DNA of 64,000 nucleotides, taken from contig CAYVNP010000006.1 in assembly GCA_964452905.1 (NCBI GenBank), positions 1,004 to 65,003 on the forward strand. Reading direction: 5' to 3'. The translations under genes and the position numbers were made by a program. This DNA comes from an uncultured Bacteroidales bacterium (GTDB lineage: Bacteria; Bacteroidota; Bacteroidia; Bacteroidales; CAYVNP01). The notes beneath the pieces were generated by a model that did not search any database, was not told where the DNA came from, and saw nothing but the letters and a program-made list of their open reading frames with translations. Shown here piece by piece: positions 7,439-50,662 of the stretch (the first letter of the stretch is position 1; each line of letters opens with the position of its first letter).

Positions 7439-7443
7439 TGTTT

Positions 7444-8490: not shown

Positions 8491-8498
8491 TAATAAAA

Positions 8499-22946: not shown

Positions 22947-23348
22947 TTATTCGATATCAGTCATCACCAATTTACCGTGTTTTATTCCTTTGGTCGCAAT
23001 AATTTTATCTGCCAGTTTAATCAGTTTTTGCGCATTTCCTTTGACAGCAATTGTTTCAAGGCATAGGTCGTGAGCCAAATGAACATGTTGCGTTGAAAGA
23101 ATAAGATCATGAAAATCATGCTGTACATCCATTAATTTACTGTTCAATTCTCTTTTATGGTGATCATAAACAATCACAATAGCGCCGGCAACAATTTTAT
23201 TTTTATCCCATTTTTCTGCAACAAGCGTATTTTTTATCAGAAAACGAATTGCCTGTGAACGATTGGGAAATTGGTTTTTAAGAACCATTTTATCCAAATC
23301 ATTCAAAGCATTTTCCTCAAGGGACACGCCAAATCTTTTTATATTCAA
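22947..23348 (-). CDS. nikR: Nickel-responsive regulator NikR (RHH plus metal-binding domain)
   Basis: The N-terminal ribbon-helix-helix (RFGVSLEENALNDLD...RSQAIRFLI) and QHVHLAHDLCLE align with E. coli LHVHINHDDCLE. H88, H90, C96 and H77 correspond to E. coli H87, H89, C95 and H76. Confidence 0.85.
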   Translation of the reverse strand: MNIKRFGVSLEENALNDLDKMVLKNQFPNRSQAIRFLIKNTLVAEKWDKNKIVAGAIVIVYDHHKRELNSKLMDVQHDFHDLILSTQHVHLAHDLCLETIAVKGNAQKLIKLADKIIATKGIKHGKLVMTDIE

Positions 23349-23411
23349 GGTGTTATCAAATTAAAATTCGTAGCACAAAAATAAAAAAAAACTAATATAA
23401 AACAAATTAGA

Positions 23412-24212
23412 TCAATTAAATTTTATAAAAAATAGATCCCTCCCATTTTCTTTGGCTATTTGCATTGCCGGTTGGTTTTGCATAATAGAGCCACCCCATT
23501 TGTTAAAATCAAATTCATGTGGTGTTTCAAACCAACTGTCAACGTGCATGATGATTTGAATTTCTTTTGTTTCACCTGATTTTATTGTGAAATAAGAGTT
23601 TAGCAATTTGACTGTAAAGTAGTTTTGAACATAACCTATAATTGAATCCGTATTAAAAGTGTTTCCTTTGTAAAGCTGCCCAATACCTAAATGAAAATCA
23701 AAACTTTGAATGTAATTTACTGTGTCTTTCCATTTTCCATTAAGCATCAGGTAATGATACCCACCCCCGAGTATATCAGGCCAGCTCATATTAACTTCAG
23801 GGGGATTGACAAATATGAATGATTTATTTTTTTCTTTAGTAATGCCTAAAACAAATGTGATTGAATCATAAGTACCTGTGGGGATTTTGTCATATACCTG
23901 CCAAGAGAGTGTTGATGGAATATTGCTATCAACATAATATATATCATTCCATTCATTTATCATTTTGATTGTACCATCGGATTTATAAAATGTTACATCT
24001 GAGATAAAATATTTAATCTCTGTAACAAGATAATGATTACCAGCTTGATTAATATATTTCAATGTATCAAATTGAATAGGCTGACCATTTACCTGATGAG
24101 CAAATGAAAAAATAATTCTACCTGTATGATCATTGGTTGTTTCAGGATTTTTATCTTTTTTACAGGATAAAAACAAAAGCAGAATACAAACAAACTGAAA
24201 ATAATGTTTCAT
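23412..24212 (-). CDS. Lipoprotein, possibly MbnP-like periplasmic metal-binding protein
   Basis: Lipobox LFLSC. The pattern IKYFISDVTFYKSDGT...GTYDSITFVLGI...FDFHLG resembles my recollection of the MbnP family. Its start codon directly abuts the stop of the upstream receptor gene. Confidence 0.5.
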   Translation of the reverse strand: MKHYFQFVCILLLFLSCKKDKNPETTNDHTGRIIFSFAHQVNGQPIQFDTLKYINQAGNHYLVTEIKYFISDVTFYKSDGTIKMINEWNDIYYVDSNIPSTLSWQVYDKIPTGTYDSITFVLGITKEKNKSFIFVNPPEVNMSWPDILGGGYHYLMLNGKWKDTVNYIQSFDFHLGIGQLYKGNTFNTDSIIGYVQNYFTVKLLNSYFTIKSGETKEIQIIMHVDSWFETPHEFDFNKWGGSIMQNQPAMQIAKENGRDLFFIKFN

Positions 24213-26318
24213 TTATAAATTTACTTCAACATTAATAAAAAAAACTCTTCCCGGTTCATACAATTTTGTTGTACTTCCAATTATTTTCCTGTTAAGATGT
24301 TCGTAATATGGGTGATTAAGCATATTATCAATACCGACAGAAATAGTTGCAAAGGAATATAATTTATATGATAATGCAACATTCAATAAAGCAAATCCCG
24401 ATGAGCTTGGTTCATAAAATGCATTGGATGTTCTTTTTTGTGGTGCAACAACTCTACATATTAACTTTGGTGTAAATTTATTTTTCAACATCTTATAATA
24501 AATAGACAGAGTTGTTTCAAAAGGAGGTATTTCCGGCAAAGGATCGTTTTTAATTATTTCATCTCCGGTAACATTACCTCCTTGAACTATATATTTTGTT
24601 GTAGATGGGATTGTCGCTTGTGTAAAAGCAGCAATTATTGTTCCACCCCATTTAAATCTTTCGGGCGAAGAATATCCACATTCAAACCCTTGCAGATTAA
24701 CTGCATCAACATTAACAAATTGTTTAACACCCAATGCACCCTGTGTTTTTGGTGTTGCAACTGATGGTGGCAATTTCTGACCCGTAATATAATTGGTAAC
24801 ATACGAATAGAAACCATTTACATAAATTGAGCCGTATTTAGTATTTGCATATTCAATTGTTAAATCCACTTGATGGTTTGCTTCAGGTTTCAGTTGTGGA
24901 TTGCCCAAATAATCATAATTGTCATATCCTACTGCTAAAAATTTAATATATCGTTCAAGCATGTTAGCATTTCTGACACCTCGACCAGCAGCTAATCCAA
25001 CTGTAATGTATTTGGTTATCTTTTTATTTAAACCTATACTGAAATTATTAAACTGAGAAGAATTCTTTTTAAAATATTCAATATCGCTTTTTACTAATTG
25101 AAGCGTATCATCAGATGAAGCAATATTGTGATCAGCTCTAATTGATGCAGTGAAATCTATTGACTTGAATTTAGTTTTATATTCAGCAAAAAGTCCGGTA
25201 TTTTGTATAAAGGCATCATTCCATAAATTTGAAATTTTTGTTGATTTAGTTGTAATACCGCCCATAGTCATTATCATGGTTGTTGTTTTCCCACCATTTT
25301 TTTCAATCTGTTCGTAGTCAGCACCAATATTGAAAATATGCTTGCCAACATTCAAACCTATTTCTGCTCTTCCTCCACTATTTAATGCATCAACAACTGA
25401 AACGGCTTGCATCGTATTATAATTAGACCTTCTACTATTGTCCATTACATGATCTACATCTGAACGGTAAATTTTTAAATCTACAAAATTAATGATCTTT
25501 GATATTTTCTGTCCGTGATAATCAACAGACATGATTTTTGTATCATCACTTTTTTCATCCATAGGCAGAGACGGATAAGATACGTCACGACCATGTGTTT
25601 CATAATAGGAAAATAAAATAGAATGATTTTCTTTTAAGCATATTCCCAAATCACCATTATAGTTATATTTCATGAATGAAGAATTGATGGTATTTTCATT
25701 CCCATCTTTGTAACTGCCGTAGTTTTTATATCCACCGGCAACATTAAAGTAAATATTTTTATTTCCGCCAAAAACCGATACTCGTTCACGTTGACCGTTC
25801 CAGTTAGATTCAAAACCATATAATGCTTTCGTGTGAACTGAAAATTTGTTATAAAATATTGGCTGTTTAGTTACTAGATTAATAACACCTCCCATCGATG
25901 AACCATATTTTAATGAATAGGGACCTTTGATGATTTCTATTTTTTCAATGTCTTCAACTTCTACATGAGATGTAACAGGATCCATGCGGTTAGGGCAACC
26001 GCCTTCAACCTTAACACCATTATTTAAAATCACATTCAACTGGCTATAGCGAAATCCTCTTACCACCGGGTCAATCCCTGCACCTCCTTTACGAACACCT
26101 GAAACATTAGGCGTACTACGAAGTAAATCTCCAATATCGCGAATATTCTTAATACTTAGCAGGCTGTCGCTTATAGTTGCAATGATGTATGGAATGGGCT
26201 TATTTGCTTGTATTAGCACAGTGTTTAATACACGAATCGAATCTCTTTTAATTTGTGCTTCAATAAGTAATTGGGTGCAAAAAAACAATATAAAAAGAAA
26301 TATGTATTGCTTATTCAT
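24213..26318 (-). CDS. TonB-dependent receptor, OprC/NosA-like (copper-type binding site)
   Basis: GGCPNRMDP (C108-x3-M112) and DHVMD (H290-x-M292) reproduce the CxxxM-HxM copper site of P. aeruginosa OprC. The Cys-to-His spacing is nearly identical (182 vs 180 residues). An LPMDE motif is also present. Confidence 0.8.
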   Translation of the reverse strand: MNKQYIFLFILFFCTQLLIEAQIKRDSIRVLNTVLIQANKPIPYIIATISDSLLSIKNIRDIGDLLRSTPNVSGVRKGGAGIDPVVRGFRYSQLNVILNNGVKVEGGCPNRMDPVTSHVEVEDIEKIEIIKGPYSLKYGSSMGGVINLVTKQPIFYNKFSVHTKALYGFESNWNGQRERVSVFGGNKNIYFNVAGGYKNYGSYKDGNENTINSSFMKYNYNGDLGICLKENHSILFSYYETHGRDVSYPSLPMDEKSDDTKIMSVDYHGQKISKIINFVDLKIYRSDVDHVMDNSRRSNYNTMQAVSVVDALNSGGRAEIGLNVGKHIFNIGADYEQIEKNGGKTTTMIMTMGGITTKSTKISNLWNDAFIQNTGLFAEYKTKFKSIDFTASIRADHNIASSDDTLQLVKSDIEYFKKNSSQFNNFSIGLNKKITKYITVGLAAGRGVRNANMLERYIKFLAVGYDNYDYLGNPQLKPEANHQVDLTIEYANTKYGSIYVNGFYSYVTNYITGQKLPPSVATPKTQGALGVKQFVNVDAVNLQGFECGYSSPERFKWGGTIIAAFTQATIPSTTKYIVQGGNVTGDEIIKNDPLPEIPPFETTLSIYYKMLKNKFTPKLICRVVAPQKRTSNAFYEPSSSGFALLNVALSYKLYSFATISVGIDNMLNHPYYEHLNRKIIGSTTKLYEPGRVFFINVEVNL

Positions 26319-26337
26319 ACAATAAAATTATTACTAT

Positions 26338-26357
26338 AACAAATATATCAAAAATCA
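26338..26357 (-). promoter_or_regulatory. Promoter with shared 20-mer (contains the TATATTTG -7 box) upstream of the OprC-like receptor
   Basis: aacaaatatatcaaaaatca is identical to 29815-29834. The reverse complement reads TGATTTTTGATATATTTGTT, and the -7 box ends about 22 nt from the ATG. Confidence 0.5.
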
Positions 26358-26401
26358 ACAGCAGTAGTTATTCCAAGTATTAACCTAATAAAAAAACATT
26401 C

Positions 26402-26689
26402 CTAATTGACTCTTTTAAAAACCAGTTTTGTTTTATCAACCCAATACATAGCATTCACATCACACGCAATAACACAAAGCCCACAAGCATCACATTTTTT
26501 GTATGAGAATACATAGTGTGCCGGATTACAAGGCACCTTCATGGAAATACAGTATTTAATACATTTAGCGCAAGTATTATTTGTGGCATTCTTTATTGCT
26601 CCTGTCGGGCAGGCTATCATGCACTTATCACATCTAATACATTTTGATGAATCTATGACAGGTATATTTTTTAGAGAAGTTTTATTCAT
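26402..26689 (-). CDS. Small poly-ferredoxin-like 4Fe-4S protein
   Basis: 95 aa with two CxxCxxCxxxC motifs (CIRCDKCMIACP, CDACGLCVIACD) plus an extra CAKCIKYC...C run. No signal peptide. Confidence 0.75.
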   Translation of the reverse strand: MNKTSLKNIPVIDSSKCIRCDKCMIACPTGAIKNATNNTCAKCIKYCISMKVPCNPAHYVFSYKKCDACGLCVIACDVNAMYWVDKTKLVFKRVN

Positions 26690-26721
26690 TTGTAATATTT
26701 AGCAAAATTGTTTGATGTATT

Positions 26722-28962
26722 TCATTTAATAAAATTTAATCCGAATGGTACTTTCAATCTTAAAGAAATGTTTCTGCCGGGATTGTACAAATTTACTTCT
26801 TTTAATGTTGATAGATGATCAACATATTTTTTGTCAAGGATATTATTTGCACCAATTGCTATTGATACAAATTGTTTTCTAAATTTAATATTACCGCCAA
26901 TACAAAAATCTAACAATGTGTACCCAGCAGTAGTTGTTTCATCTGGAGCAGCATGATTTTGGTCAAAAGCTGTATTTGTATTTACAGAGAAATAAACTTT
27001 TTGCAGAAATAATAATTTTTCTTTTTCGGCTCGAAATTCAAACTTTAATTTATTAGCAGGAACAAATGGTAAAAAATCACCGTTTTGTTGTTTGCCTTTA
27101 ACCATAGAAAATGTACTTTCAAAATGCAACCATTTTAAATAGTTGGGATGAAAATGAATGCCGGCTTCACCACCAAATAAAACAGCATTTGTTTGTTTAT
27201 ATTTGTAAATATTAATGCCAGAAGAAGTCGCATCATCTGTTGGTGAAATAAATATGTAATGATTGATAATATTGTAAAATCCTGCAACATCAAAAGTGAA
27301 ATTATCTATATGATAATGTGTACTAAAATCAATCTCGTATGAGTTTTCAGATGTCAGGTTTCTGTCACCAACTTCATAACGCGTTTCGTGTTGTCCATTT
27401 GAAGTAAGCTCTGCCAAATTTGGCGTACGATAAGCAGAAGCAACGTTTGTTCTAAATAACAATTTTTCCGAAATATTGTATGTTGTTCCAATTGATCCGC
27501 TGAAACTTCCATAATTCTTTTCAAGCGGAACATGAAATCCTGAATCCTGAGGCAAGCCAATAGCCTTAGTTGAAATAGTTTTATTATCATAGCGAATACC
27601 TGTCTGTAATTTTAGTTTTTTGAAAAAAGCATGTTGTAATAAAGCAAATGCAGAATAATTATTTATAGCGGCATCCGGTAATATTTTGGTTGTTCTGTCA
27701 TTCATATTTGTATTCATTTGATTTAAACCCTGAAAACCGACAATGTATTCTGAATTTTTATTTGATGGCAAATGAAGTCGTGCTTCATAAGTGAGTGTCA
27801 CGAGCTTCATTTGTATTTCAGTAACATTAATTTCGCCAAAATGAATTAATTCGGTATTTTGATAAGCTGAATTCAGATCGAGTTTAAATTTACCGAGATA
27901 TAGTTTATTTTGTGAAGACAACAGATGAGTGTTTAATTGCTGGTACCAGATTTTATTTTCTCTTGCTCTTTTAGTAATTTCTTTAATAGCTTGATCTTCG
28001 ACTAAGCCAAGTTTTTGATTATTGAAATCATAAAACAGTTTGAATGTACCAACTTTCCCGGTGTAACCTGCATTTGCCTTTAGAGAATATTCATTAAAAC
28101 GCGAGTTGGGAACAAAAGCACCGCCACCTTGCAGAAAATCGGCATTTGTTTTTTGACCAATTCTAATTCCGCCAAAGAATTTTTTCGATGCTCCTTTAAT
28201 TCCTATATTATTGGTCATTCCGAGTGTACTTGAAAAAAGTTGCAAATTGTAATCACCTATAATACTACCAACAGGCGCGGGTTTTTCTTTAATAAAATTA
28301 ATAACCCCACCTATTGCATCGGATCCATAGAGCAATGAAGCCGGCCCTTTGATAATTTCAATATCTGCTATTCCAAATTCATCAATGCCGAGAGGATGAT
28401 GACTGGAATACTGATAATTTTCAAACCGCACACCATTATTCAGAATTAAAATGTCATTCATTGAAAGACCACGAATTACCGGTTTTGAAACGCCACTTCC
28501 TTTTGAGATCATATCTACACCAGGCACTTTGGTTAACACTTCAGCAAAATTAGGTGTGTTAAGAGTTGTGAGAGAATTCAATTTTAAAACATCAATTTTT
28601 ACAGCATTATCATGCTGTGTTGAATTAAATCCACTTGTAACAACAACCGCTTCCAGTTCAATAGTTAATCGTTTCATAATAATATTTAATTCTACAGTGC
28701 CGCCATTCAGTACAACGGGTTCAATTAGGTTAGTACGTTCTATAAATGAAAATTGAATCTTAAATTTTCCATCAGGCAGATTCGATAATTCATATTTTCC
28801 ATTTGTATCTGATACTGTACTTTTATTCATTTCCAAAAGGAATACATTTGCCCCAGCCAATGGTACATTATTCTGATCTGTGATTTTACCTGTGATTTTA
28901 TTTTGTGATTTTACGTTATGACATAAAAATATCATAACGCATATAATAAATATATTTTTCAT
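26722..28962 (-). CDS. TonB-dependent receptor with CarboxypepD_reg N-terminal domain
   Basis: Signal peptide, ITGKITDQNNVPLAGANVFL domain, plug (VIRGLSMNDILILNNGVR), barrel. I place the start at the ATG at 28960-28962; the track start is a TTG. Confidence 0.85.
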   Translation of the reverse strand: MKNIFIICVMIFLCHNVKSQNKITGKITDQNNVPLAGANVFLLEMNKSTVSDTNGKYELSNLPDGKFKIQFSFIERTNLIEPVVLNGGTVELNIIMKRLTIELEAVVVTSGFNSTQHDNAVKIDVLKLNSLTTLNTPNFAEVLTKVPGVDMISKGSGVSKPVIRGLSMNDILILNNGVRFENYQYSSHHPLGIDEFGIADIEIIKGPASLLYGSDAIGGVINFIKEKPAPVGSIIGDYNLQLFSSTLGMTNNIGIKGASKKFFGGIRIGQKTNADFLQGGGAFVPNSRFNEYSLKANAGYTGKVGTFKLFYDFNNQKLGLVEDQAIKEITKRARENKIWYQQLNTHLLSSQNKLYLGKFKLDLNSAYQNTELIHFGEINVTEIQMKLVTLTYEARLHLPSNKNSEYIVGFQGLNQMNTNMNDRTTKILPDAAINNYSAFALLQHAFFKKLKLQTGIRYDNKTISTKAIGLPQDSGFHVPLEKNYGSFSGSIGTTYNISEKLLFRTNVASAYRTPNLAELTSNGQHETRYEVGDRNLTSENSYEIDFSTHYHIDNFTFDVAGFYNIINHYIFISPTDDATSSGINIYKYKQTNAVLFGGEAGIHFHPNYLKWLHFESTFSMVKGKQQNGDFLPFVPANKLKFEFRAEKEKLLFLQKVYFSVNTNTAFDQNHAAPDETTTAGYTLLDFCIGGNIKFRKQFVSIAIGANNILDKKYVDHLSTLKEVNLYNPGRNISLRLKVPFGLNFIK

Positions 28963-29029
28963 TTTAAACGCTGTATTCAATAAACAAATTTTTAGTTAGT
29001 ACCCCGAAGGATGCTATAATGCAATTTGT

Positions 29030-29335
29030 TTACAATGGAGGTGCTCTTAATAAAAATGAATATTTTGAAAGAATGGAAGAGGAACTAAAACGATAATTAT
29101 TGCAGTATTGATCTGATGGTTGTTCGTTTTCAAGATTGACATTTTTAATTTCTGATGAAAAAAATGAAAAATCAAAAATACAGATTTCACATTTCTCGTG
29201 ATAGTTGTGATAATGTTTCTCGTTTTTCGCTTTGCAAATAAAATGTTTGTGATGATGTTCCATCTTAACTATTGAAGGTGCAAGAAAAACAAACACCAAC
29301 AATATATATGTAATATGATTAAGCTTTTTTATCAT
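29030..29335 (-). CDS. Small membrane-anchored His/Cys-rich protein (HYC_CC_PP-like?)
   Basis: N-terminal TM helix, then MEHHHKHFICKAKNEKHYHNYHEKCEIC (8 His and 3 Cys in 28 aa). It ends ...LLRAPPL. The family name is recalled, not verified. Confidence 0.5.
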   Translation of the reverse strand: MIKKLNHITYILLVFVFLAPSIVKMEHHHKHFICKAKNEKHYHNYHEKCEICIFDFSFFSSEIKNVNLENEQPSDQYCNNYRFSSSSILSKYSFLLRAPPL

Positions 29336-29352: not shown

Positions 29353-29772
29353 TTAAAAAGTCAACACAATTTTATTATTTCTGATTAATTCATACAAATC
29401 TTTTAATGATGAGAATTTACAAATCTGTGGTTCATTATTCTTTCGACTTTGTAAACATGTACCGCAACCAAGTATAACACCACCACTATGTAAAAACTCA
29501 TCAGCTTGTTCTTTTATATTTTTATTTTTTTTTACAATGTTATCGAGTTCAATACCTTTTCCAAGAAGAAAAATACGTACGGTGTCACCTTCTTTTTGGG
29601 AATAATTAGCAAATCGTAATGCATTCCAGATTGTTTCAACATCATTGGAATAGATTACAATCCCAATGCTTGTTGCTTTAGTAGTTTTGGTAGCTGTTCC
29701 GCCACACTGCGCATAAATATTGAGAAAAGATATGCTCCACAGGATTGTCAGAAAAATAAATATTTTTTTCAT
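29353..29772 (-). CDS. Exported DsrE/DsrF-like protein
   Basis: Start placed at MKKIFIF (29770-29772). Signal peptide ending ...YAQC, then a DsrE-like alpha/beta core (IGIVIYSND...VRIFLLGKGI...GGVILGCGTCLQSR). Confidence 0.7.
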   Translation of the reverse strand: MKKIFIFLTILWSISFLNIYAQCGGTATKTTKATSIGIVIYSNDVETIWNALRFANYSQKEGDTVRIFLLGKGIELDNIVKKNKNIKEQADEFLHSGGVILGCGTCLQSRKNNEPQICKFSSLKDLYELIRNNKIVLTF

Positions 29773-29814: not shown

Positions 29815-29834
29815 AACAAATATATCAAAAATCA
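29815..29834 (-). promoter_or_regulatory. Promoter with shared 20-mer (TATATTTG -7 box) upstream of the DsrE-like gene
   Basis: Identical 20-mer to 26338-26357. The -7 box at 29817-29824 lies 45 nt upstream of the ATG at 29772. Confidence 0.5.
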
Positions 29835-29939
29835 TCAATAGGTAAGTAAGCGAGTATTTTCGGGTTTGCCAAGTTCTTTGCCATTTAATCTCTGATATTT
29901 CTTTTTAATATCATAAGTATATTTCATGGTATCTTTCAT
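29835..29939 (-). pseudogene. Duplicated 3'-terminal fragment of the hdrB-like gene (34-codon ORF)
   Basis: Translates to MKDTMKYTYDIKKKYQRLNGKELGKPENTRLLTY*. The HdrB-like C-terminus reads MKYPFDIKKKYQGLNDKDLGKPKNNRLLSCC*. Nucleotide similarity is visible over about 95 nt with 30434-30530. Confidence 0.6.
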
Positions 29940-29944
29940 AATTA

Positions 29945-30388
29945 TTAAATGTTCTCATTGGATTTTGATTTATTTAATTTTATTGGGGTTGGTCCTAATT
30001 TTTTAATGGTATTAACCATTTCGTTAATTGTATTCACCAGCGTGGTACCTCCGGCGGCTGAGTTATTTACCATGCGCAGACGTTCTTTCTCAATACCGCA
30101 TTCTTCAAGAATATTTCTGGTAGCATTAACACGTTTCTTTGCAAACAAATTGCCATCAATAAAATGACAACCACCTTCAAGGCAACCGGCAACTAATACC
30201 CCGTCAGCTCCGTTTTCAAAAGCTCTCATATAATATTCAACTTCCAGCCTGCCTGTACAGGGAGTGCGGATGATGCGAACATTAGGCGAATATTGAAGTC
30301 GCATTGAACCTGCTAAATCTGCTGCTGCATAAGCGCAGTAATGACAAAAGAATGCGACGATTTTAGGCTCAAAATTTTTATCATTCAT
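29945..30388 (-). CDS. MvhD/FlpD-like iron-sulfur protein (methyl-viologen-reducing hydrogenase delta subunit family)
   Basis: IVAFFCHYCAY...RTPCTGRLE...VAGCLEGGCHF, the conserved Cys pattern of MvhD. Confidence 0.8.
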   Translation of the reverse strand: MNDKNFEPKIVAFFCHYCAYAAADLAGSMRLQYSPNVRIIRTPCTGRLEVEYYMRAFENGADGVLVAGCLEGGCHFIDGNLFAKKRVNATRNILEECGIEKERLRMVNNSAAGGTTLVNTINEMVNTIKKLGPTPIKLNKSKSNENI

Positions 30389-30433
30389 AATTTTTATTGT
30401 TACTTTTTTTAATTAAAATATAATCTGTCTGAT

Positions 30434-31504
30434 TCAACAACAGGAAAGCAAACGATTATTCTTAGGTTTGCCAAGGTCTTTGTCATTCAATCCCTGATAT
30501 TTTTTCTTAATATCAAAAGGATATTTCATCTTATTCAGCAAAGGCGCAACATCTACCTGATGTACTTGTAATCCTATATCCCAAGGGTTGTAGCCAAGTA
30601 TTAATCCTGCTAATTCTTCATAAGTTAATACAGGAATGCCATATCCTTTATCATCGAAGGAAGTGTCTGTCATTTCACTGATCACATATTGCCATCTGTC
30701 CATAAAAAAATTACACCCCGGGCAGTTGGTAATAATTAAATCAGGATTGTATGGCTTCATTGAATCAAATTTCTTTTTTGTATTTGCAACAGAATAGCCC
30801 CTGTTTGCTTTAATAAGATATTGCCTGAATCCAAAACCGCAGCAATGTCTGCGTTCTGGATAATCCACGCGATCACCACCCCATTCATCAATAAGTCCGG
30901 CTAAAACATACGGATATTCTGCGCCTCCAATACCTTTATCAGGAAAGATTTTTGCATAATGACATCCGATATGTTCAACTACTTTTAATGGTTCGCCTGT
31001 TGTTTTATTATGTAATTTAAATTTTGCTTTTGCAGAAATTTCTTTACGGAATTTATAAATCACATCACTGGTGTGAACCAGATTCTTAGGTGGTACAAAA
31101 TCTTTTCCTGTAGCTTGTTTTAACAATTCTTTCGTTTTTTTCAATGTTACAGGAAAGTGTTTCCATGTTTCCAATACTTCACCATAAATGCCAAAAGAAG
31201 TAACACATGAACAAACAAAATTTTCATAACCAGCTTCATTCATCAGTGCAAACTGGCGGGCAACAACTGTCATCGTGGTTTCCATCGGAATAATGCCTGA
31301 ATGATAGGCAATACCTGTGCACGTTGTTTGACGGGGATCATCAAAAATATCTTTCCCCAACTCTATATTAAGAATCTTCAAAAATAATTCTTCGGCAGCA
31401 GGTAATACATTTTGTCTGATACAGCTTCGTGCAAAATAGTAGTTATCATCAGCAATTTCTTTCTGATAAGTCAACCAGGTTTCAGATGCTTTTTCTGTTT
31501 TCAT
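30434..31504 (-). CDS. Heterodisulfide reductase subunit B-like (CCG-domain protein)
   Basis: Canonical C-terminal CCG domain (C...HCCGFG...NCPGC) and a degenerate N-terminal one. Overlaps the hdrC-like stop by 4 nt. Confidence 0.8.
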   Translation of the reverse strand: MKTEKASETWLTYQKEIADDNYYFARSCIRQNVLPAAEELFLKILNIELGKDIFDDPRQTTCTGIAYHSGIIPMETTMTVVARQFALMNEAGYENFVCSCVTSFGIYGEVLETWKHFPVTLKKTKELLKQATGKDFVPPKNLVHTSDVIYKFRKEISAKAKFKLHNKTTGEPLKVVEHIGCHYAKIFPDKGIGGAEYPYVLAGLIDEWGGDRVDYPERRHCCGFGFRQYLIKANRGYSVANTKKKFDSMKPYNPDLIITNCPGCNFFMDRWQYVISEMTDTSFDDKGYGIPVLTYEELAGLILGYNPWDIGLQVHQVDVAPLLNKMKYPFDIKKKYQGLNDKDLGKPKNNRLLSCC

Positions 31505-32202
31505 TTTAATGTATGTTCACCATTATAGACCATTTTGAAATAATCATCACTCGTATCTTTACCATAAGAAACACCGAGTTCTTGCGCTTTTTGTTCTGAA
31601 TATTTTTCAATTTTTTCAAATCGTTCGGTTGCGCCTGTTAGATCAAAAATCTTTTGTAAATCATTTAATGATTCCTGACAAATTTTTCTGAGAGTACCTG
31701 CTCCATCGCCTTTATAGTTAGCACCTAATCTTTCCAGAATATCTGTTGCATTTTTCCTCATCCATTCCCAAACAGGTCCTTGTTCTGGATACATATCAGT
31801 ATTAATTTCATCAAAATAAACACAATAGCCGTATTTCAAAATATGCTCACCAATAGTACGTTTTAAAGCCAATTGCTGACGACCTTTTTCTGATTCAATA
31901 AATAATCCGGTTTCTATTGATAAAGCTCTTAATGCCTGAATTACATAGCCGGGTACATTATTTCTTGGACAACGTGTTTTACAGCTTAGGCATTCTCCAC
32001 ACATCCAAATCATATCGCTTTTTAACAAAGCTTCAATTTCATTTTCATTTCGGGATTGAACAGTGTCAACTATCCTACGGGGATCGTAATCATAAAACTG
32101 TGCAGCCGGACATATTGCTGTACAAGTACCACAATTGATACAAGCAGACAACCCTTCAGTAAAACGGATATCCTTAGCTAATAGTTTGTACCAAAGTTCC
32201 AT
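31501..32202 (-). CDS. Heterodisulfide reductase subunit C-like (2x[4Fe-4S])
   Basis: CINCGTCTAICP and CGECLSCKTRCP motifs, 233 aa. Confidence 0.8.
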   Translation of the reverse strand: MELWYKLLAKDIRFTEGLSACINCGTCTAICPAAQFYDYDPRRIVDTVQSRNENEIEALLKSDMIWMCGECLSCKTRCPRNNVPGYVIQALRALSIETGLFIESEKGRQQLALKRTIGEHILKYGYCVYFDEINTDMYPEQGPVWEWMRKNATDILERLGANYKGDGAGTLRKICQESLNDLQKIFDLTGATERFEKIEKYSEQKAQELGVSYGKDTSDDYFKMVYNGEHTLK

Positions 32203-32295
32203 ATATTGAATTTTTTTCTATACTATTTAACATTTTTCTTATAGCTGATAATACGGAGCATTGCTTTTTAAAATGTTAGAATTAAAAAATGTATT

Positions 32296-33003
32296 TTATT
32301 TTTTCTTTTCAATATATTCAATAATTATTTTTTCAACTTCACTCATTCTGAAATCATATTCTTTTCTTAACCACCCAAGTTTTTGTTTATCAGAAATTGT
32401 CTTTGGAATGTTCAGTTTTGTTTTTATGTATTCAGACGGAACAAAATATTTTTTCGACACATCTTCAAGAGTCATATACCCTTTTACTTCAATCGAATTA
32501 GAATGATTGTGTGTTTCTAAGGAATGATCTTTATCAGTGTGGCTATTTTTTATTGGAGAGATAACTTTTTTTTCGCTTATAGGATTGTTAGTGTGGTATT
32601 TTACTTGTCGTCCCTTTCCTTGTTCAATTTCAACTACTTCAGGGTTAATTATAAATGAAATAAAAATTAAAAAAACAGAAATAATAATGAATAATGATGC
32701 TATTATTTTTCGTGCCATTTTCCTTTGTATTAGTTTATTATATATACAAATTATAACATTCCAATGTAAAATAATATGAAGCACTAATAACCCAAGTAAT
32801 ATAAATCCAATTACGAGATGAATAGTCCCCCATTCATGTCTATCCATTCCCCAAAAATAAAGATCAACATTTTTCTCATACTTAATCCATCTTTCTTGTC
32901 CTGGAATCAATGTGAATTTTATTAAAAAACCTATCCCGGCAATAGCTGACATACATAAAAACATTAATCCATTTATTATGAAATTCAGAAGTGATTGATT
33001 CAT
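32296..33003 (-). CDS. DUF4405-like cytochrome-b-type membrane protein with a soluble C-terminal domain
   Basis: Four TM helices with conserved His (RHEWGTIHLVIGFILLGLLVLHIILHWN), followed by a roughly 90-aa soluble tail. Confidence 0.65.
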   Translation of the reverse strand: MNQSLLNFIINGLMFLCMSAIAGIGFLIKFTLIPGQERWIKYEKNVDLYFWGMDRHEWGTIHLVIGFILLGLLVLHIILHWNVIICIYNKLIQRKMARKIIASLFIIISVFLIFISFIINPEVVEIEQGKGRQVKYHTNNPISEKKVISPIKNSHTDKDHSLETHNHSNSIEVKGYMTLEDVSKKYFVPSEYIKTKLNIPKTISDKQKLGWLRKEYDFRMSEVEKIIIEYIEKKK

Positions 33004-33076
33004 GATAATTTTTTTACATAATAATAAAACATTTATTTATAGGGAACATGTCTTTAATTGAATAAAAGTGTTATTG

Positions 33077-33586
33077 TTAATGATAAGGATCGGAAAAATC
33101 CATTGCATAATAAACAGTATTACTTTGCAAAGCAAGGATAGAATTATGATTGAATTCTCTATCTTTAACCACAAGAGTAGTGACAGGTGCTTTAGACGTT
33201 TTATTAAATAAAATGTCATGCCCCATACATAAACCTAATGTGATATTGAGTTCAGTTTTGCTTTGTGACAGTTCATGTGCCTGACCGACCGGATTACAAG
33301 TCAGTCCTTTTGCTTCATAACCAAGAATCTCTTTTGAAGGAACCCTCCCTATTTTACAGTTTGAAGTAAAAACATCAAATTCATCAGATAATAGTTCTTT
33401 CAATTTATCAGCTTCTTTTTGGAGTGCAACACAATTTGCAATACCTATACGCTTATATCCAGATAGGCGAGCGAATTTTTTTATTTCTTCCACTCGGTTT
33501 TTACCTACAATACGGGCATCCTCTGCTATCTGCATGATTTTTTTATCTTCGTCAGTATATAATTCTTGAATATTGTTATTTTCCAT
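33077..33586 (-). CDS. DUF1847-like putative metal-binding protein
   Basis: IGIANCVAL...CKIG...CNPVGQA...LGLCMGHDILF...TTLVVKD pattern with four spaced Cys. Confidence 0.6.
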   Translation of the reverse strand: MENNNIQELYTDEDKKIMQIAEDARIVGKNRVEEIKKFARLSGYKRIGIANCVALQKEADKLKELLSDEFDVFTSNCKIGRVPSKEILGYEAKGLTCNPVGQAHELSQSKTELNITLGLCMGHDILFNKTSKAPVTTLVVKDREFNHNSILALQSNTVYYAMDFSDPYH

Positions 33587-33596
33587 GTTATGTTCG

Positions 33597-34037
33597 TTAA
33601 TGAAAGCTCGTTTGTAATTCAGATACTTTAATTGTATTAAATGTATGAAGGATATTAATTATGTTTTCTGGCGGATGACAAGGTTGTCGACTTCCTTTAT
33701 GTATAAAAGCAACAACGATTTTAGCTTCATTAATCAGTTCACCTGCTGCATTAAACATTTTATATGAAAAAAAAATTCGAGCACCTTTGATATTATTCAA
33801 AGTAGTTTCAATGGTGAGCAAATCATCATAAAACGCAGGTTTAATAAATCGAAATGTCATATCTGTTACAGGAAGCAAATAGTTGTCTTTTTCAATAGAC
33901 TTATATGAGATACCTACCTTGCGTAATAATTCCCATCGGGCGGTTTCATAATACCTAACATAATTGGAATGATGCATAAAACCCATCTGATCGGTATCAG
34001 AATACTTAACCCGTTGTTTTGTTAAATTTGTGTACAT
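33597..34037 (-). CDS. Acyl-CoA thioesterase, YbgC/4HBT hotdog family
   Basis: YSDTDQMGFMHHSNYVRYYETARWELLR, a typical 4HBT N-terminus with catalytic Asp. Confidence 0.8.
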   Translation of the reverse strand: MYTNLTKQRVKYSDTDQMGFMHHSNYVRYYETARWELLRKVGISYKSIEKDNYLLPVTDMTFRFIKPAFYDDLLTIETTLNNIKGARIFFSYKMFNAAGELINEAKIVVAFIHKGSRQPCHPPENIINILHTFNTIKVSELQTSFH

Positions 34038-34043
34038 AATTGA

Positions 34044-34409
34044 TTAATGATTATGACAGTCAGCTTGTCCTTCATGTCCGCCACATCCGATACCACTGTC
34101 TGTTAATGTACCATTTAAAAATGATTCGGCAACTTCTTTTGGATGTCCGCTACATCCACGAATTACATTAATACCGTGCTGATTTAAAACATTTAAAGCA
34201 CCCATACCCATATTACCGGCAAGCATTACTTCTACGCCTGTTCTTTGTAAAACCCCAGCTATATTTGACTTACAACCACATCCTTCAGGTGATTTGATCG
34301 TTTCTTCATAAATAATTTCTTTTTCGTCAACAGTAAATACAGTATATGATTCGCAATGACCGAAATGATCATCAATTCTGTTTTCTCTTGTTGGAACTGC
34401 AATTTTCAT
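34044..34409 (-). CDS. NifB/NifX-family (dinitrogenase Fe-Mo cofactor biosynthesis domain) protein
   Basis: MKIAVPT...DDHFGHCESYTVF... plus a Cys/His-rich C-terminus (GCGGHEGQADCHNH). Confidence 0.8.
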   Translation of the reverse strand: MKIAVPTRENRIDDHFGHCESYTVFTVDEKEIIYEETIKSPEGCGCKSNIAGVLQRTGVEVMLAGNMGMGALNVLNQHGINVIRGCSGHPKEVAESFLNGTLTDSGIGCGGHEGQADCHNH

Positions 34410-34431
34410 TTTTTTCTCCTTAATTTATTAT

Positions 34432-35265
34432 TTAGTTATTTTTATTGATTTCTGACATGTAATATATTTGATTTAGTGATTGAGCTAATAAACTAAAAGC
34501 ATTCTTCCCTGTACAATGCCCGGTAAAGAAAGAAGCATCGGGAAGTAACAGTTTCAATTCTTGTCCTATAAATAATAACTCATCATCTTTTTCAGTTTCT
34601 ATAAATTCATTTTTATCTATCAAATGAAATCCGCCAATAACCTTGATAATCCTTTCGTTTGGGAAAAAATTCTTAACTGTAGATACTACATTCAAAATGC
34701 CAAGGTGTGAACAACCGCTGAAGATGGTTAAGCCATCCATTGATTTTACTAAAAATATTAATTCATGTAAAAAAACATCATTCACAAAATTATTATCCTG
34801 TTCTTTCAATAACAGTTTATTTCCTAATGGCAGCGGATATTGCCTATCAATCCTGATAATGAATAATAGATTATCTGAAATAAAACAATCATTCTGAATA
34901 AATACAAAGCGTTTATCATATTTTAACAATTCATTAGAATATCCAATGTGCTTCATAGCTCCGTTTCTAATGGAAAAATATTGACTGGCGAATATTTCAT
35001 TTTTAAGAAATACTTTTGCTTTTATATTGTATTGTAGAAAAGGTATTAAACCACCAATATGATCAGAATGTCCATGAGATATAACAACGGTATCAATATC
35101 CTTCAAATCAACATTCAACTTTTCGGCATTATGCATGAATAAATCTGAAGCACCTGTATCAAAAAGAATTTTATGCGCTACAGTTTCAATATAAAGTGAT
35201 AACCCATGTTCGCTTTTCAGTGTATCTGAAACTAAATTATTTTCTATTAGTGGTATGATTTTCAC
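34432..35265 (-). CDS. MBL-fold metallo-hydrolase, COG1237 type
   Basis: SEHGLSLYIET...ILFDTGAS...VISHGHSDHIGGL (HxHxDH motif), 277 aa. Confidence 0.8.
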   Translation of the reverse strand: MKIIPLIENNLVSDTLKSEHGLSLYIETVAHKILFDTGASDLFMHNAEKLNVDLKDIDTVVISHGHSDHIGGLIPFLQYNIKAKVFLKNEIFASQYFSIRNGAMKHIGYSNELLKYDKRFVFIQNDCFISDNLLFIIRIDRQYPLPLGNKLLLKEQDNNFVNDVFLHELIFLVKSMDGLTIFSGCSHLGILNVVSTVKNFFPNERIIKVIGGFHLIDKNEFIETEKDDELLFIGQELKLLLPDASFFTGHCTGKNAFSLLAQSLNQIYYMSEINKNN

Positions 35266-35291
35266 TCGATTTTATAGAGGGTTAATTTGTT

Positions 35292-35615
35292 TTAACTTTT
35301 AGCACGCATTAATACAATATAATCTTTCAATGTCTTTTCTGTATCAACAACTATGATTATTTGAATTTTTAATTCTTTTAACAGTATTTTAACTTTCTCG
35401 CCTATTTCACTTGAAATGATACGTTCAACTTGTTTCTCTTGAAGCAGCTTAACCGCTGCGCATCCCGCATATTCTTTTATTTCCCTATATGAATTTTCAA
35501 TAAATTCATATTCACCTGTATGGGTATCATAAATCATAAAATAAGCACACCGGCCAAAGTGTTTATCAATTCTGGAATTAAGCGAATTATTTTCTGCTGC
35601 AAATGCTACTTTCAT
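35292..35615 (-). CDS. NifB/NifX-family protein (second copy)
   Basis: MKVAFAAEN...IDKHFGRCAYFMIYD, 107 aa. Confidence 0.75.
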   Translation of the reverse strand: MKVAFAAENNSLNSRIDKHFGRCAYFMIYDTHTGEYEFIENSYREIKEYAGCAAVKLLQEKQVERIISSEIGEKVKILLKELKIQIIIVVDTEKTLKDYIVLMRAKS

Positions 35616-35617
35616 TA

Positions 35618-36043
35618 TTAATCGTTTTGACTGATTAATTCTTTATAATTTTCAATTGTTTTTGAGCCACACATTGGACAAGAGATTTTTTTGGTTTGAT
35701 TTAAAGGATTATTGAAGTTGCTATTGCATTTTTTACATCTGAACCATTCTTCATCAAAATAAACTTGCCCTCCTTCAATTTCAATTACTTTAGCTTCAGC
35801 AAAAGCTTTTGCAATCTTGCGTCTGTAACTCTCATAAATTCTAGTAAATGTAGGTCTGGAAACATTCATATAAATTGCCGCTTCTGCTTGTGTATGCAAT
35901 TCATAATCACATAACCGCATAGCTTCAAATTCTTCAAAATTCAGAGTAACGGATTCTTTACTTTTTCCAAAATATCCAAAAGGTCTGTATCCCTTAAATG
36001 GTGGAGGATTGAGCATTTTTCTTAATCTTTTTGGACGCGACAT
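35618..36043 (-). CDS. DUF134-family putative DNA-binding protein with C-terminal zinc ribbon
   Basis: Start placed at MSRPKRLRK... (36041-36043), typical of DUF134. HTH-like region LHTQAEAAIYMNVSRPTF and a C-terminal CKKC...CPMC. Confidence 0.75.
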   Translation of the reverse strand: MSRPKRLRKMLNPPPFKGYRPFGYFGKSKESVTLNFEEFEAMRLCDYELHTQAEAAIYMNVSRPTFTRIYESYRRKIAKAFAEAKVIEIEGGQVYFDEEWFRCKKCNSNFNNPLNQTKKISCPMCGSKTIENYKELISQND

Positions 36044-36065
36044 AAAATAATTTATTTCTGCAAAG

Positions 36066-36087
36066 ATAATGAACATTTGTTCATTAT
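36066..36087. promoter_or_regulatory. Perfect 10-bp inverted repeat (candidate operator) in the divergent promoter region
   Basis: ATAATGAACA-tt-TGTTCATTAT, 23-44 nt upstream of the DUF134 start and about 55 nt upstream of the opposite -7 box. Confidence 0.5.
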
Positions 36088-50614: not shown

Positions 50615-50662
50615 TTCTCTTTTATTTTATTTCTATTTTTGCACAAATTTACAAAATCCGAA

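Follow-up and report, generated by a model that had tools for sequence, protein, structure and literature searches.

What does an HdrC-HdrB pair do in an anaerobic bacterium when its genes lie between one for a membrane protein and one for MvhD, and does the membrane protein anchor the pair? The window analysed here, a stretch of 64 kb of Bacteroidales DNA, carries four such genes, all on the minus strand, in the transcription order DUF4405, hdrC-like, hdrB-like and mvhD (Table 1). A preliminary description of these genes proposed that the DUF4405 protein is the quinone-linked anchor of a disulfide reductase analogous to HdrDE. HdrB-type CCG proteins carry out an unusual one-electron disulfide chemistry, and their substrates are known mainly from methanogens and sulfur oxidisers. 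The low-molecular-weight thiol system of these anaerobes is also poorly known, and the identity of the substrate could reveal how they maintain their thiols, persulfides or metal cofactors in the reduced state.

Profile searches returned HdrC, CCG, PF02662 and PF14358, in agreement with the domain assignments of the preliminary description. Its coordinates are exact on the minus strand, as are its spacings: a gap of 93 nt from DUF4405 to hdrC, an overlap of 4 nt between hdrC and hdrB, and a gap of 45 nt from hdrB to mvhD. The comparison set consisted of about 140 related loci, and 80 hdrCB loci were fetched for counts of neighbouring genes.

Table 1. Features of the hdrCB locus and its surroundings (positions in the window)
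Feature	Position	Strand	Description and evidence
DsrE-like	29353..29772	minus	139 aa from ATG; Pfam DsrE E 1.1e-5; signal-peptide-like N-terminus
hdrB 3'-end remnant	29832..29927	minus	96 nt, 31 codons plus stop, ~80% identical to 30434-30529; tblastn and pairwise alignment
mvhD (FlpD)	29945..30388	minus	147 aa, [2Fe-2S]-type electron-transfer subunit; PF02662 E 1.1e-48
hdrB-like	30434..31504	minus	356 aa; aligns over its whole length with HdrB chains 9SFI_C and 5ODC_B
hdrC-like	31501..32202	minus	233 aa, ferredoxin-type subunit; Pfam Fer4_8/17/9, NCBIfam HdrC E 2.6e-32, 5ODC_C E 4e-13
Variable slot, DUF1847 to hdrC	32175..33067	minus	blastn finds no homology to the DNA of L081 or L143, the nearest relatives
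DUF4405	32296..33003	minus	235 aa membrane protein; PF14358 E 5.5e-13
Upstream island block	33077..36076	minus	Pfam and NCBIfam; syntenic with L081 and L143
DUF1847	33077-33586	minus	part of upstream island
YbgC-type thioesterase	33597-34037	minus	part of upstream island
NifX-like, second	34044-34409	minus	part of upstream island
Metallo-beta-lactamase fold	34432-35265	minus	part of upstream island
NifX-like	35292-35615	minus	part of upstream island
DUF134	35618-36076	minus	part of upstream island
MqnC	50639-51751		above its curated cut-off

The conserved unit is the hdrC-hdrB pair

The hdrC-like gene adjoins hdrB and encodes two CxxCxxCxxxCP [4Fe-4S] motifs (residues 21-32 and 68-79), so that both the motifs and the overlap reported earlier are confirmed. 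HdrC is its top NCBIfam match, yet the score of 111.9 bits lies far below the curated cut-off of 350. The HdrB-like protein matches solved HdrB chains from end to end (9SFI_C, E 8e-28; 5ODC_B, E 6.5e-25), and its equivalog scores are far too low (for NF041780 139.6 bits, where the cut-off is 450; for TIGR03288 113.3, where it is 345). By these scores the protein is HdrB-like and not an HdrB equivalog.

HdrB has two CCG motifs of the form CX31-39CCX35-36CXXC, each with five cysteines. In the window protein the C-terminal motif is complete, and its cysteines (C181, C221, C222, C261 and C264) are invariant in 78 of 78 family members; this region (residues 178-268) gives the single Pfam CCG match. 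The N-terminal site has three cysteines (C28, C62 and C100), together with H68 and S103, and these five residues are retained in 75-78 of the 78 members, with T/S61 and S103 standing in for the two other cysteines of the motif in as many members. Of the canonical and the degenerate CCG domain described earlier, the canonical one is indeed present, but the other is a conserved variant and not a product of decay. Such strong conservation suggests that the chemistry of the variant site may differ from canonical disulfide reduction. The tail of the protein ends in CC.

There are 2749 homologues of the HdrB-like protein, many of them 72-94% identical, and their source names are those of Bacteroidales. 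The hdrC-hdrB family extends across the Bacteroidales, in at least 580 species genomes, and the gut genus Alistipes is among its carriers. The two genes are adjacent in 78 of the 80 fetched loci, where HdrB is 62-80% identical to the window protein, and from lineage to lineage the partner genes beside the pair change. The conserved unit is thus the hdrC-hdrB Fe-S pair alone and not the four-gene set. As judged from these alignments, the pair belongs to an uncharacterised HdrCB family that is large and highly conserved in the Bacteroidales and whose first cluster site is altered yet conserved.

Reading of all open reading frames of at least 120 aa in the 64-kb window, together with scans for HdrA and hydrogenase motifs, revealed no HdrA partner for hdrCB and no hydrogenase, and the sole match to seven HdrA/Qmo/HdrD-type queries in tblastn searches of the window was that of the QmoC-like ferredoxin domain to hdrC. 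The earlier statement that HdrA and hydrogenase are absent therefore holds for the window, but it does not extend to the relatives, several of which encode HdrA-like proteins. With the HdrABC-MvhAGD complex of methanogens (5ODC, 7BKB, 9SFI) the locus shares the two [4Fe-4S] motifs of HdrC, the HdrB fold with an intact C-terminal five-cysteine CCG site, and the five cysteines of MvhD. It differs from that complex in lacking HdrA and Mvh hydrogenase within the 64 kb, in having three cysteines instead of five at the first CCG site, in its NCBIfam scores for HdrB and HdrC, and in the length of both subunits (HdrB by about 60 aa and HdrC by about 50 aa longer). To our knowledge, no production of CoM or CoB is known in Bacteroidales. 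In Methanosarcina acetivorans, HdrB2C2 needs no HdrA2 to reduce CoM-S-S-CoB at the expense of reduced ferredoxin, the genome encodes hdrA2 at a distance from hdrB2C2, and the MvhD domain fused to HdrA2 is the electron-input part (PMC5296606). The window resembles this system in encoding hdrBC apart from hdrA; it differs in that MvhD is a free protein encoded next to hdrCB, in that HdrA is missing from the window, and in that the substrate would not be CoM-S-S-CoB.

mvhD is a recent addition to the operon

The MvhD-like gene reported downstream of hdrB is confirmed: the match to PF02662 covers positions 1-123 of 123, and the protein also matches chain 7BKB_F (E 3e-39), with whose cysteines C15, C18, C44, C69 and C74 align, leaving the ligands intact. 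Its score against NCBIfam VhuD is 153.3, compared with a cut-off of 215, and neither Mvh/Vhu hydrogenase nor HdrA accompanies it within the window. Whereas mvhD is present in the operon in all three genomes of the window's small clade, at two different positions, it adjoins hdrCB at none of the 80 other loci. Identities of 96% and 90% to the orthologues in L081 and L143 indicate purifying selection. Outside the clade, the closest MvhD proteins are encoded after a fused HdrA, and the window protein is 87% identical to that of a canonical hdrCBA-mvhD cluster (L085) whose HdrB is only 21% identical to that of the window. The hdrB remnant that follows mvhD is colinear with the hdrB tail and dsrE of L143 and is absent from L081-L083. 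This order is the scar of an insertion of mvhD between hdrB and dsrE, and mvhD is a recent addition restricted to one small clade.

DUF4405 occupies a variable slot

The DUF4405 protein scores 49.7 bits against PF14358 (cut-off 26.7) and has a sub-threshold match to Ni_hydr_CYTB (E 0.0098). It comprises three transmembrane helices, a disordered linker and a conserved soluble C-terminal four-helix domain of about 60 aa, and its AlphaFold model has a pLDDT of 69.5 as a whole, rising to more than 90 in residues 171-230. An alignment of 27 subfamily sequences shows H56, H62 and H76 to be invariant and H80 to be present in at least 90%; H62 and H76 lie 14 residues apart on the second transmembrane helix. 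The protein had been described as a four-helix, multi-His protein, which is right for the histidines and wrong for the membrane helices. Its score above the gathering threshold and its conserved membrane-embedded histidines are the marks of a DUF4405 haem-b cytochrome, and the suggested link to b-type cytochromes has since been borne out for one family member: an Oscillospiraceae protein binds haem b experimentally and has been proposed to transfer electrons through the membrane to extracytosolic acceptors (PMC11334425). That protein has six transmembrane helices, supplies four histidines in one chain and is tied to apbE flavinylation genes (PMC11334425). The window protein shares with it and with FezC (PMC11334425) the PF14358 domain and conserved histidines on a transmembrane helix, but has three such helices plus the soluble C-terminal domain, and no apbE lies nearby. 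With only three helices it would have to dimerise to supply four histidines, as modelled for FezC (PMC11334425), and it is probably a haem-b cytochrome acting as a dimer. By the positive-inside rule, the conserved C-terminal domain would face the outside of the cell.

DNA homology to L081 and L143 ends precisely at the edges of the slot in which DUF4405 lies (blastn). The same slot holds an unrelated 91-aa Cys-rich secreted protein (orf91) in L081 and L082, whose HdrB is 94% identical to that of the window, and mvhD with a 112-aa Cys-rich protein (orf112) in L143, whose HdrB is 87% identical. Among the 67 relatives with enough upstream sequence, DUF4405 is immediately upstream of hdrC in two (L030 and L041, from divergent lineages), and in 5 of 80 it is no more than 8 kb away from hdrCB. 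In the reverse direction, neither hdrC nor hdrB was found at any of 56 loci with DUF4405 orthologues (52 metagenome loci, many of them short, and 4 long genome contigs), and one genome (L144) has a complete DUF134/NifX/MinD-Fdx island with DUF4405 and without hdrCB. The earlier proposal of an anchor draws little support from these comparisons. Of the six occurrences near hdrCB, three place DUF4405 directly upstream of hdrC (the window, L030 and L041), which exceeds random expectation for an island with some 12 genes (a rough estimate of p ~0.01 that ignores shared ancestry), so there may be a functional link of some kind between DUF4405 and hdrCB. Its position in a swappable slot nevertheless argues against a dedicated role as membrane anchor.

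HdrA, sulfur carriers and the surrounding island in relatives

In the closest relative, genes for DsrE2, TusA and a second FlpD, together with an HdrA-like flavoprotein of 914 aa, lie about 7.5 kb upstream of hdrC. The window has Trx and a MATE transporter at the syntenic position, and tblastn searches of it for TusA, a cytoplasmic DsrE2 and HdrA-like genes found none. Genes for DsrE, TusA and MvhD-like, QmoA/HdrA-like and QmoC-like proteins are present within 8 kb at 9 of 80 loci. A short hdrA immediately follows hdrB in 25 of 79 relatives, and its product matches the structure of Hyphomicrobium sHdrA (6TJR) from end to end (E 2e-64). In more distant relatives (62-66% identical), to which the partial match is confined, the order hdrC, hdrB, short hdrA, fdx and membrane HdrD is that of an sHdr cluster, except that the last gene encodes a membrane domain; distant HdrCB-family members adjoin a 597-aa protein that combines a membrane domain with a ferredoxin domain and a pair of CCG domains. 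The clusters of the sulfur-oxidising Hdr-like system (sHdr) take the form shdrC1B1AHC2B2 or, in type II with sHdrB3, C1B1AHB3-etfAB, along with LbpA and TusA/DsrE, the two transferases being constant companions (bioRxiv 10.1101/2023.12.18.572138). The window has the C/B pair only, with its variant first CCG site, and among the recurrent neighbours of hdrCB at the related loci there is no gene for a lipoate-binding protein.

Within 8 kb of hdrCB, the 80 loci encode NifX-like proteins (31), DUF134 (30), Mrp (26), MinD-Fdx (23) and a CoADR/Nox-type flavoprotein (18). The window has DUF134 and two NifX-like genes, one product of which matches the C-terminal domain of MrpORP (E 9e-22); MinD-Fdx and Mrp genes were not found in it. 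The ORP cluster of Desulfovibrio vulgaris offers parallels to the islands of the relatives in its NifX/Di-Nase proteins, its pair of MinD-type ATPases that bear ferredoxin domains, and its Mrp/NBP35, but it has no hdrCB, and its regulator is a sigma-54 activator and not DUF134 (PMC6345978). Downstream, the DsrE-like protein is a clade-conserved neighbour (75-79% identical in L081 and L143) and is predicted from its N-terminus to be exported. Exported-type proteins, either DsrE-like or small and Cys-rich, occur in the operon of all three clade genomes, and a metal-uptake block (TonB-receptor/MbnP/NikR) lies immediately beyond the operon.

A candidate electron wire and its alternatives

The reading that we favour, with a probability of roughly one half, is a soluble MvhD-HdrC-HdrB electron wire for disulfide or persulfide reduction, housed in a DUF134/NifX (ORP-like) island, with DUF4405 as a separate optional module. 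Beyond the observed gene identities, conservation patterns, insertion scar and slot variability, we infer a direction of electron flow, a donor, a substrate and a contact between MvhD and HdrC. The conserved unit would be a cytoplasmic two-subunit Fe-S module, in which the HdrC-like protein would hold two [4Fe-4S] clusters and the HdrB-like protein an intact noncubane-cluster site beside a conserved three-cysteine variant. Its island would be a set of genes related to thiols, metals and Fe-S that is reshuffled cassette by cassette. The [2Fe-2S] protein MvhD, presumably acquired from a lineage that serves canonical HdrABC-MvhD complexes, would most likely be the electron-entry subunit, receiving electrons from a low-potential ferredoxin or from an HdrA/Qmo-like flavoprotein encoded elsewhere and passing them through HdrC to HdrB, whose C-terminal CCG site would reduce the candidate disulfide or persulfide. 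A direct contact between MvhD and HdrC would be without precedent, since the docking partner of MvhD in the solved Mvh-Hdr complexes is HdrA rather than HdrC. DUF4405, probably a haem-b dimer that carries electrons through the membrane, would be an island option and no dedicated Hdr anchor. The exported proteins of the operon (DsrE-like here, small and Cys-rich in relatives) are left unexplained by a purely cytoplasmic model.

The anchor originally proposed, in which a DUF4405 haem-b dimer would pass electrons from menaquinol to the CCG site as a quinol:disulfide reductase like HdrDE, now appears quite improbable. Haem b binding by a DUF4405 protein (PMC11334425), the invariant pair H62/H76, the shared strand and short gap with no terminator-like site before hdrC, and the recurrence of the arrangement in L030 and L041 are all consistent with it, as are the MqnC gene, by which the organism probably makes menaquinone, and the membrane-bound HdrD-like partner of more distant family members. 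HdrDE, too, couples a CCG catalytic module to a b-type cytochrome, and the 597-aa protein adds to the likeness. However, HdrE is a NarI-type multi-helix b cytochrome and a conserved partner of the CCG module; DUF4405 is neither, having three helices and no relation to NarI, and HdrC and HdrB are unfused here. DUF4405 is also missing from the operons of the two nearest relatives at a slot with sharp boundaries, is rare upstream of hdrC, and occurs without hdrCB at its own orthologous loci and in L144. Its predicted outside domain agrees with the outward electron transfer suggested for this family and not with anchoring. Menaquinol, moreover, is a weak reductant for most disulfides. In practice, the unit worth studying is the hdrC-hdrB pair, not the four genes together.

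A sulfur relay is unlikely, though it draws on much of what the relatives encode: HdrCB would be the catalytic part of an sHdr/Qmo-like system acting on protein persulfides carried by TusA/DsrE, in partnership with an HdrA-like flavoprotein and a second FlpD from other parts of the genome, and mvhD would supply the docking adaptor to that flavoprotein. The DsrE2-TusA-FlpD and HdrA-like genes of the closest relative, the nine loci with comparable sets, the short hdrA that resembles 6TJR, and a gene order mirroring shdrC1B1A(H)C2B2 (bioRxiv 10.1101/2023.12.18.572138) all point this way. Against it stand the absence of these genes from the window, the apparent export of its DsrE-like protein, the missing lipoate-binding neighbour, and the three-cysteine first site, whereas sHdrB1 probably binds two noncubane clusters (bioRxiv 10.1101/2023.12.18.572138); the hosts, furthermore, are anaerobic Bacteroidales and not known as sulfur oxidisers. 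Export of low-potential cytoplasmic electrons through MvhD and HdrC to DUF4405, and onward to exported Cys proteins such as the DsrE-like one or to metals of the adjacent uptake block, is very improbable. It would suit the extracytosolic acceptors proposed for DUF4405 cytochromes (PMC11334425), the exported proteins of all three clade operons and the metal-uptake genes directly downstream, but DUF4405 is found in only one of the three clade genomes, HdrB is left with no role, and nothing directly connects these proteins. A bolder and quite improbable extension is that the HdrCB family, with its conserved Cys/His/Ser first site, is an HdrA-independent disulfide or persulfide reductase core with interchangeable electron inputs (MvhD, short HdrA, a CoADR-type flavoprotein or DUF4405), which a DUF4405 dimer would couple to the membrane in the window; such a membrane-coupled HdrCB would be a new split counterpart of HdrDE in a non-methanogen.

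Gene identities and the HdrCB family

Profile searches agree with the gene names assigned in the preliminary description (DUF4405, HdrC, HdrB and MvhD), and its spacings are exact: a 93-nt gap between DUF4405 and hdrC, a 4-nt overlap between hdrC and hdrB, and a 45-nt gap between hdrB and mvhD. The DUF4405 protein matches its profile with an E value of 5.5e-13 and also, below threshold, Ni_hydr_CYTB. The HdrC-like protein carries ferredoxin dicluster domains and matches NCBIfam HdrC (2.6e-32), the HdrB-like protein carries a single CCG domain and matches NCBIfam HdrB (1.3e-40), and MvhD is matched over its full length by the FlpD profile (E 1.1e-48). The closest solved structures for these three proteins are methanogen subunits, namely 9SFI_C and 5ODC_B for the HdrB-like protein (E ~1e-28 to 1e-25, whole protein aligned), 5ODC_C for the HdrC-like protein (E 4e-13) and 7BKB_F for MvhD (E 3e-39). 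All three score well under the NCBIfam equivalog cut-offs; they are relatives of the methanogen enzyme and not orthologs.

Features of the operon, its surroundings and related loci (L handles denote fetched related loci; all other positions are in the window)
Feature	Location	Strand	Description
DUF4405	32296-33003	-	First in transcription order
DUF4405 C-terminal domain	Residues 171-235, 32296-32500	-	~60 aa, conserved four-helix bundle, pLDDT >90 (AlphaFold)
hdrC-like	31501-32202	-	Second in transcription order
hdrB-like	30434-31504	-	Third in transcription order
First CCG-like site, three-Cys variant	HdrB residues 28-106, gene 30434-31504	-	C28, C62, C100 plus T/S61, H68, S103
HdrB C-terminus	30434-30445	-	~30-residue tail past canonical HdrB fold, Cys-Cys end
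mvhD	29945-30388	-	Last in transcription order
hdrB 3'-end pseudo-copy	29832-29927	-	96 nt, 31 codons plus stop, ~80% identical to 30434-30529, directly after mvhD
Metal-uptake-like block	22947-29335	-	Directly 3' of operon; conserved but reordered in L081
MqnC (cyclic dehypoxanthinyl futalosine synthase)	50639-51751	+	442 bits vs cut-off 428
Small secreted Cys-rich proteins	L081 9025-9300 (91 aa); L143 3126-3464 (112 aa)		47% identical mutually
mvhD 3'-end copy	L081 12264-12377		114 nt, 92% identical; after inserted TMEM175 gene
DsrE2-TusA-FlpD plus 914-aa HdrA/GltD-like fusion	L081 1-2375
CoADR/NADH-oxidase-type flavoprotein (~451 aa)	L041 ~7200-9265; L100 4478-6738; L102 3299-5429; L106 2367-4440		Directly upstream of DUF4405
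DsrE-TusA-MvhD-like-QmoA-like-HdrA-like-QmoC-like cluster	L004 3279-7172; also L021, L023, L040
Five-gene hdrC-hdrB-short hdrA-ferredoxin-CCG cluster	L044-L080, e.g. L064 9210-14300, L073 9291-14269		Alistipes, Rikenellaceae, other Bacteroidales

The analysis exposes a widespread, uncharacterized Bacteroidales HdrCB family in which one cluster site is altered and the partner genes vary. A search with the HdrB-like protein returned 2749 matches, the best 120 of which are 72-94% identical; the named sources are Bacteroidales. Relatives occur in at least 580 species-representative genomes, with hosts that include Alistipes, Rikenellaceae, Prolixibacteraceae, Odoribacter and Muribaculaceae, and the literature on Bacteroidales HdrB, on HdrBC plus MvhD without HdrA, and on DUF134 yielded no account of the family. 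When 80 hdrB loci were fetched and their ORFs clustered, hdrC was found to adjoin hdrB in 78 of them. One fetched homolog (P0004, 438 aa) has an internal duplication of ~140 residues and unrelated sequence at its end, oddities that probably represent an assembly artifact; its contig is 1.8 kb long.

The 80 loci fall into two context types according to their identity to the window. In relatives that are 67-80% identical, hdrCB lies in an island of varying content, with families that include DUF134, NifX-like proteins, DUF5320, an ARMT1/DUF89-like protein, a radical SAM protein, a CGGC-domain protein, two MinD-type ATPases with ferredoxin domains, Mrp, a CoADR/Nox-type flavoprotein, a metallo-beta-lactamase-fold protein, a thioesterase, MetC, a peroxiredoxin and a methyltransferase. 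These families are paralleled by Orp3, Orp4, orange protein and MrpORP of the Desulfovibrio orange-protein (ORP) complex (PMC6345978). In relatives that are 62-66% identical (Alistipes and others), hdrCB is followed by genes for a 346-aa short HdrA, a 111-aa ferredoxin and a 597-aa membrane, ferredoxin and two-CCG-domain protein. The short hdrA lies directly 3' of hdrB in 25/79 loci, and its product aligns over its full length with the sHdrA structure from Hyphomicrobium, 6TJR (E 2e-64). This five-gene order mirrors shdrC1B1A(H)C2B2 of the sulfur-oxidizer Hdr-like (sHdr) system (bioRxiv 10.1101/2023.12.18.572138), but the Bacteroidales hosts are anaerobes and the last subunit of their cluster is membrane-bound.

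HdrB has a conserved variant first site

The first CCG domain of HdrB had been described as degenerate. The family alignment rules out a decayed copy and reveals instead a conserved variant, with the variant residues invariant across the family and the site reading RSC28...(T/S)(T/S)C62(T/S)GI(A/G)YH68...SC100(V/I)TS103FG. This three-Cys site, which is conserved in both hdrCB context types, is what most sets the family apart, and its strict conservation suggests that it binds a ligand other than the five-Cys noncubane cluster. Of the cysteines at the end of the protein, C355 is kept in 36/78 members and C356 in 24/78; the C-terminus might be a mobile redox-active tail.

mvhD is a clade-specific addition

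None of the 80 loci has an FlpD gene adjoining hdrCB. Such a gene stands beside hdrCB only in the window's nearest relatives: L081, L082 and L083 (HdrB 94% identical) have the order hdrC-hdrB-mvhD with 96% identical MvhD, and L143 (HdrB 87%) has mvhD upstream (90% identical) in the order DUF1847-mvhD-orf112-hdrC-hdrB-dsrE. There is no mvhD 3' of hdrB in L084 (HdrB 79%). In the window, the hdrB-tail remnant that follows mvhD and the dsrE gene are colinear with the hdrB tail and dsrE of L143; mvhD was thus inserted between hdrB and dsrE. The remnant can itself be read as a 31-codon ORF, MKYTYDIKKKYQRLNGKELGKPENTRLLTY. The mvhD 3'-end copy in L081 is the same kind of scar, and it seems that when a cassette inserts into one of these islands, the 3' end of the gene upstream of it becomes duplicated.

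The closest MvhD sequences beyond this clade (81-87% identical) are encoded in clusters of the canonical order hdrC(184 aa)-hdrB(290 aa)-fused hdrA-mvhD-DUF5981, and the HdrB of such a cluster is only 21% identical to that of the window. Thus, the sequences indicate that the clade's MvhD was recruited from the classical HdrABC-MvhD lineage. A dying passenger gene is ruled out by the 90-96% identity of MvhD within the clade and its intact Cys ligands.

DUF4405 is an optional neighbor

The nature of the DUF4405 protein had been recognized correctly, as a member of this family binds heme b and has been suggested to carry electrons across the membrane (PMC11334425); H56, H62 and H76 are invariant in the window's subfamily. 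The protein is not a four-helix membrane protein as described, but has three TM helices, followed by a disordered linker and then by a C-terminal four-helix domain that is well predicted. FezC has been modeled as a dimer (PMC11334425), and because the window protein has three helices with its conserved His residues clustered on or beside TM2, it would likewise need to dimerize. Given the five Lys/Arg residues in the TM2-TM3 loop, the positive-inside rule would place the C-terminal domain outside the cytoplasm. This domain (consensus IEVKGYMTL..VS.KY.VP..YIK.KLNIP) has no Pfam or PDB match, and a fold search of the AlphaFold model against the PDB gave nothing better than E = 10.

The DUF4405 gene occupies a variable slot. 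At the DNA level, segment 32175-33067 matches neither L081 nor L143; the sequence on either side of it is 83-92% identical to L081 and 70-83% to L143. In its place, L081 encodes an unrelated 91-aa Cys-rich secreted protein and L143 has mvhD and the 112-aa paralog of that protein. These two small proteins share a repeated F(I/V)DKNxDxxCD motif and have no Pfam match. The proposed association of DUF4405 with hdrCB is borne out only in part: DUF4405 lies within 8 kb of hdrB in 5/80 loci, directly upstream of hdrC in two of them (L030 and L041), but hdrC or hdrB is present at 0/56 DUF4405 loci, a set of 52 metagenome loci (many short) and four long genome contigs. One of the related loci, L144, is a complete island (DUF134-DUF5320-NifX-MinD-Fdx(x2)-NifX-flavoprotein-MT-MBL-ARMT1-DUF4405-CGGC) without hdrCB. 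By the variable slot, the 0/56 count and L144, each of hdrCB and DUF4405 is an optional module of one island type; the two sometimes lie side by side, and DUF4405 is not a dedicated partner. DUF4405 directly adjoins hdrC in 3/6 co-occurrences, which exceeds the random-order expectation; a loose functional link is possible, and an obligate DUF4405-HdrCB complex is unlikely. In the DUF4405-side set, a CoADR-type flavoprotein is paired with DUF4405 in three loci, and the two may form a recurring flavoprotein-cytochrome pair.

HdrA-like genes in related loci

The reported lack of HdrA holds within the window: no HdrA, Qmo, HdrD or hydrogenase gene was found when all ORFs of at least 120 aa in the 64 kb were read, and tblastn with seven HdrA/Qmo/HdrD-type queries and motif scans were likewise negative. 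It is a statement about the window only: in the closest relative, L081, genes for DsrE2-TusA-FlpD (144 aa) and for an HdrA-like flavoprotein of 914 aa (HdrA-type N-terminus, GltD-like insertion) lie on the strand opposite hdrC, ~7.5 kb upstream of it. A thioredoxin and a MATE transporter fill the syntenic position in the window. A cluster of DsrE, TusA, MvhD-like, QmoA-like, HdrA-like and QmoC-like genes lies within 8 kb of hdrCB in 9/80 loci; it also contains a small winged-helix gene, and its QmoA-like and HdrA-like proteins are 433 and 641 aa long.

Proposed mechanism and alternatives

We propose a cytoplasmic Fe-S wire in which electrons would pass from MvhD ([2Fe-2S]) through HdrC (two [4Fe-4S]) to HdrB, ending at its intact C-terminal CCG site, where a disulfide or persulfide would be reduced. 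Ferredoxin, or an HdrA/Qmo-like flavoprotein encoded elsewhere, could supply the electrons. An HdrA-free HdrCB mechanism has precedent, since HdrB2C2 of Methanosarcina acetivorans can reduce its substrate by itself when given reduced ferredoxin, and hdrB2C2 and hdrA2 are widely separated in the genome (PMC5296606). We assign this picture as a whole a probability of about 0.5; the gene identities, conservation, scars and slot variability are observations, and the electron donor, the substrate, the way in which electrons flow and a contact of MvhD with HdrC are inferred.

A variant in which HdrCB takes part in a sulfur relay, to be set beside the DsrE and TusA genes of related loci and the sHdr-like gene order, is unlikely. 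Less probable again is the model of the preliminary description, with DUF4405 as the membrane anchor of HdrCB-MvhD in an analog of HdrDE: heme binding in the family and the occasional adjacency to hdrC agree with it, but it is largely undermined by the optional character of the DUF4405 cassette, which is absent from the slot in L081 and L143. Outward export of electrons, to be set beside the transmembrane carrier role proposed for the family, is very improbable. The window locus falls outside HdrABC-Mvh (HdrA and hydrogenase absent, one CCG site variant, scores under the cut-offs), outside HdrDE (no HdrE-type cytochrome or conserved partner) and outside sHdr (C/B pair only). In its working it would most resemble an HdrBC subcomplex to which MvhD is added as a free input module.

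Regulatory signals and neighboring genes

The only Rfam match in the whole window is a tRNA, with no riboswitch to hint at a ligand. A sigma-70 promoter and terminator scan, using a promoter type ill-suited to Bacteroidota, found about as many sites as expected from shuffled sequence; no terminator-like hairpin separates DUF4405 from hdrC. The metal-uptake-like block beside the operon encodes a small His-rich membrane protein, a TonB-dependent receptor, a 2x[4Fe-4S] ferredoxin, a second TonB-dependent receptor, MbnP and NikR. Elsewhere in the window, MqnC scores above its cut-off, and menaquinone is probably synthesized in this organism through the futalosine pathway.
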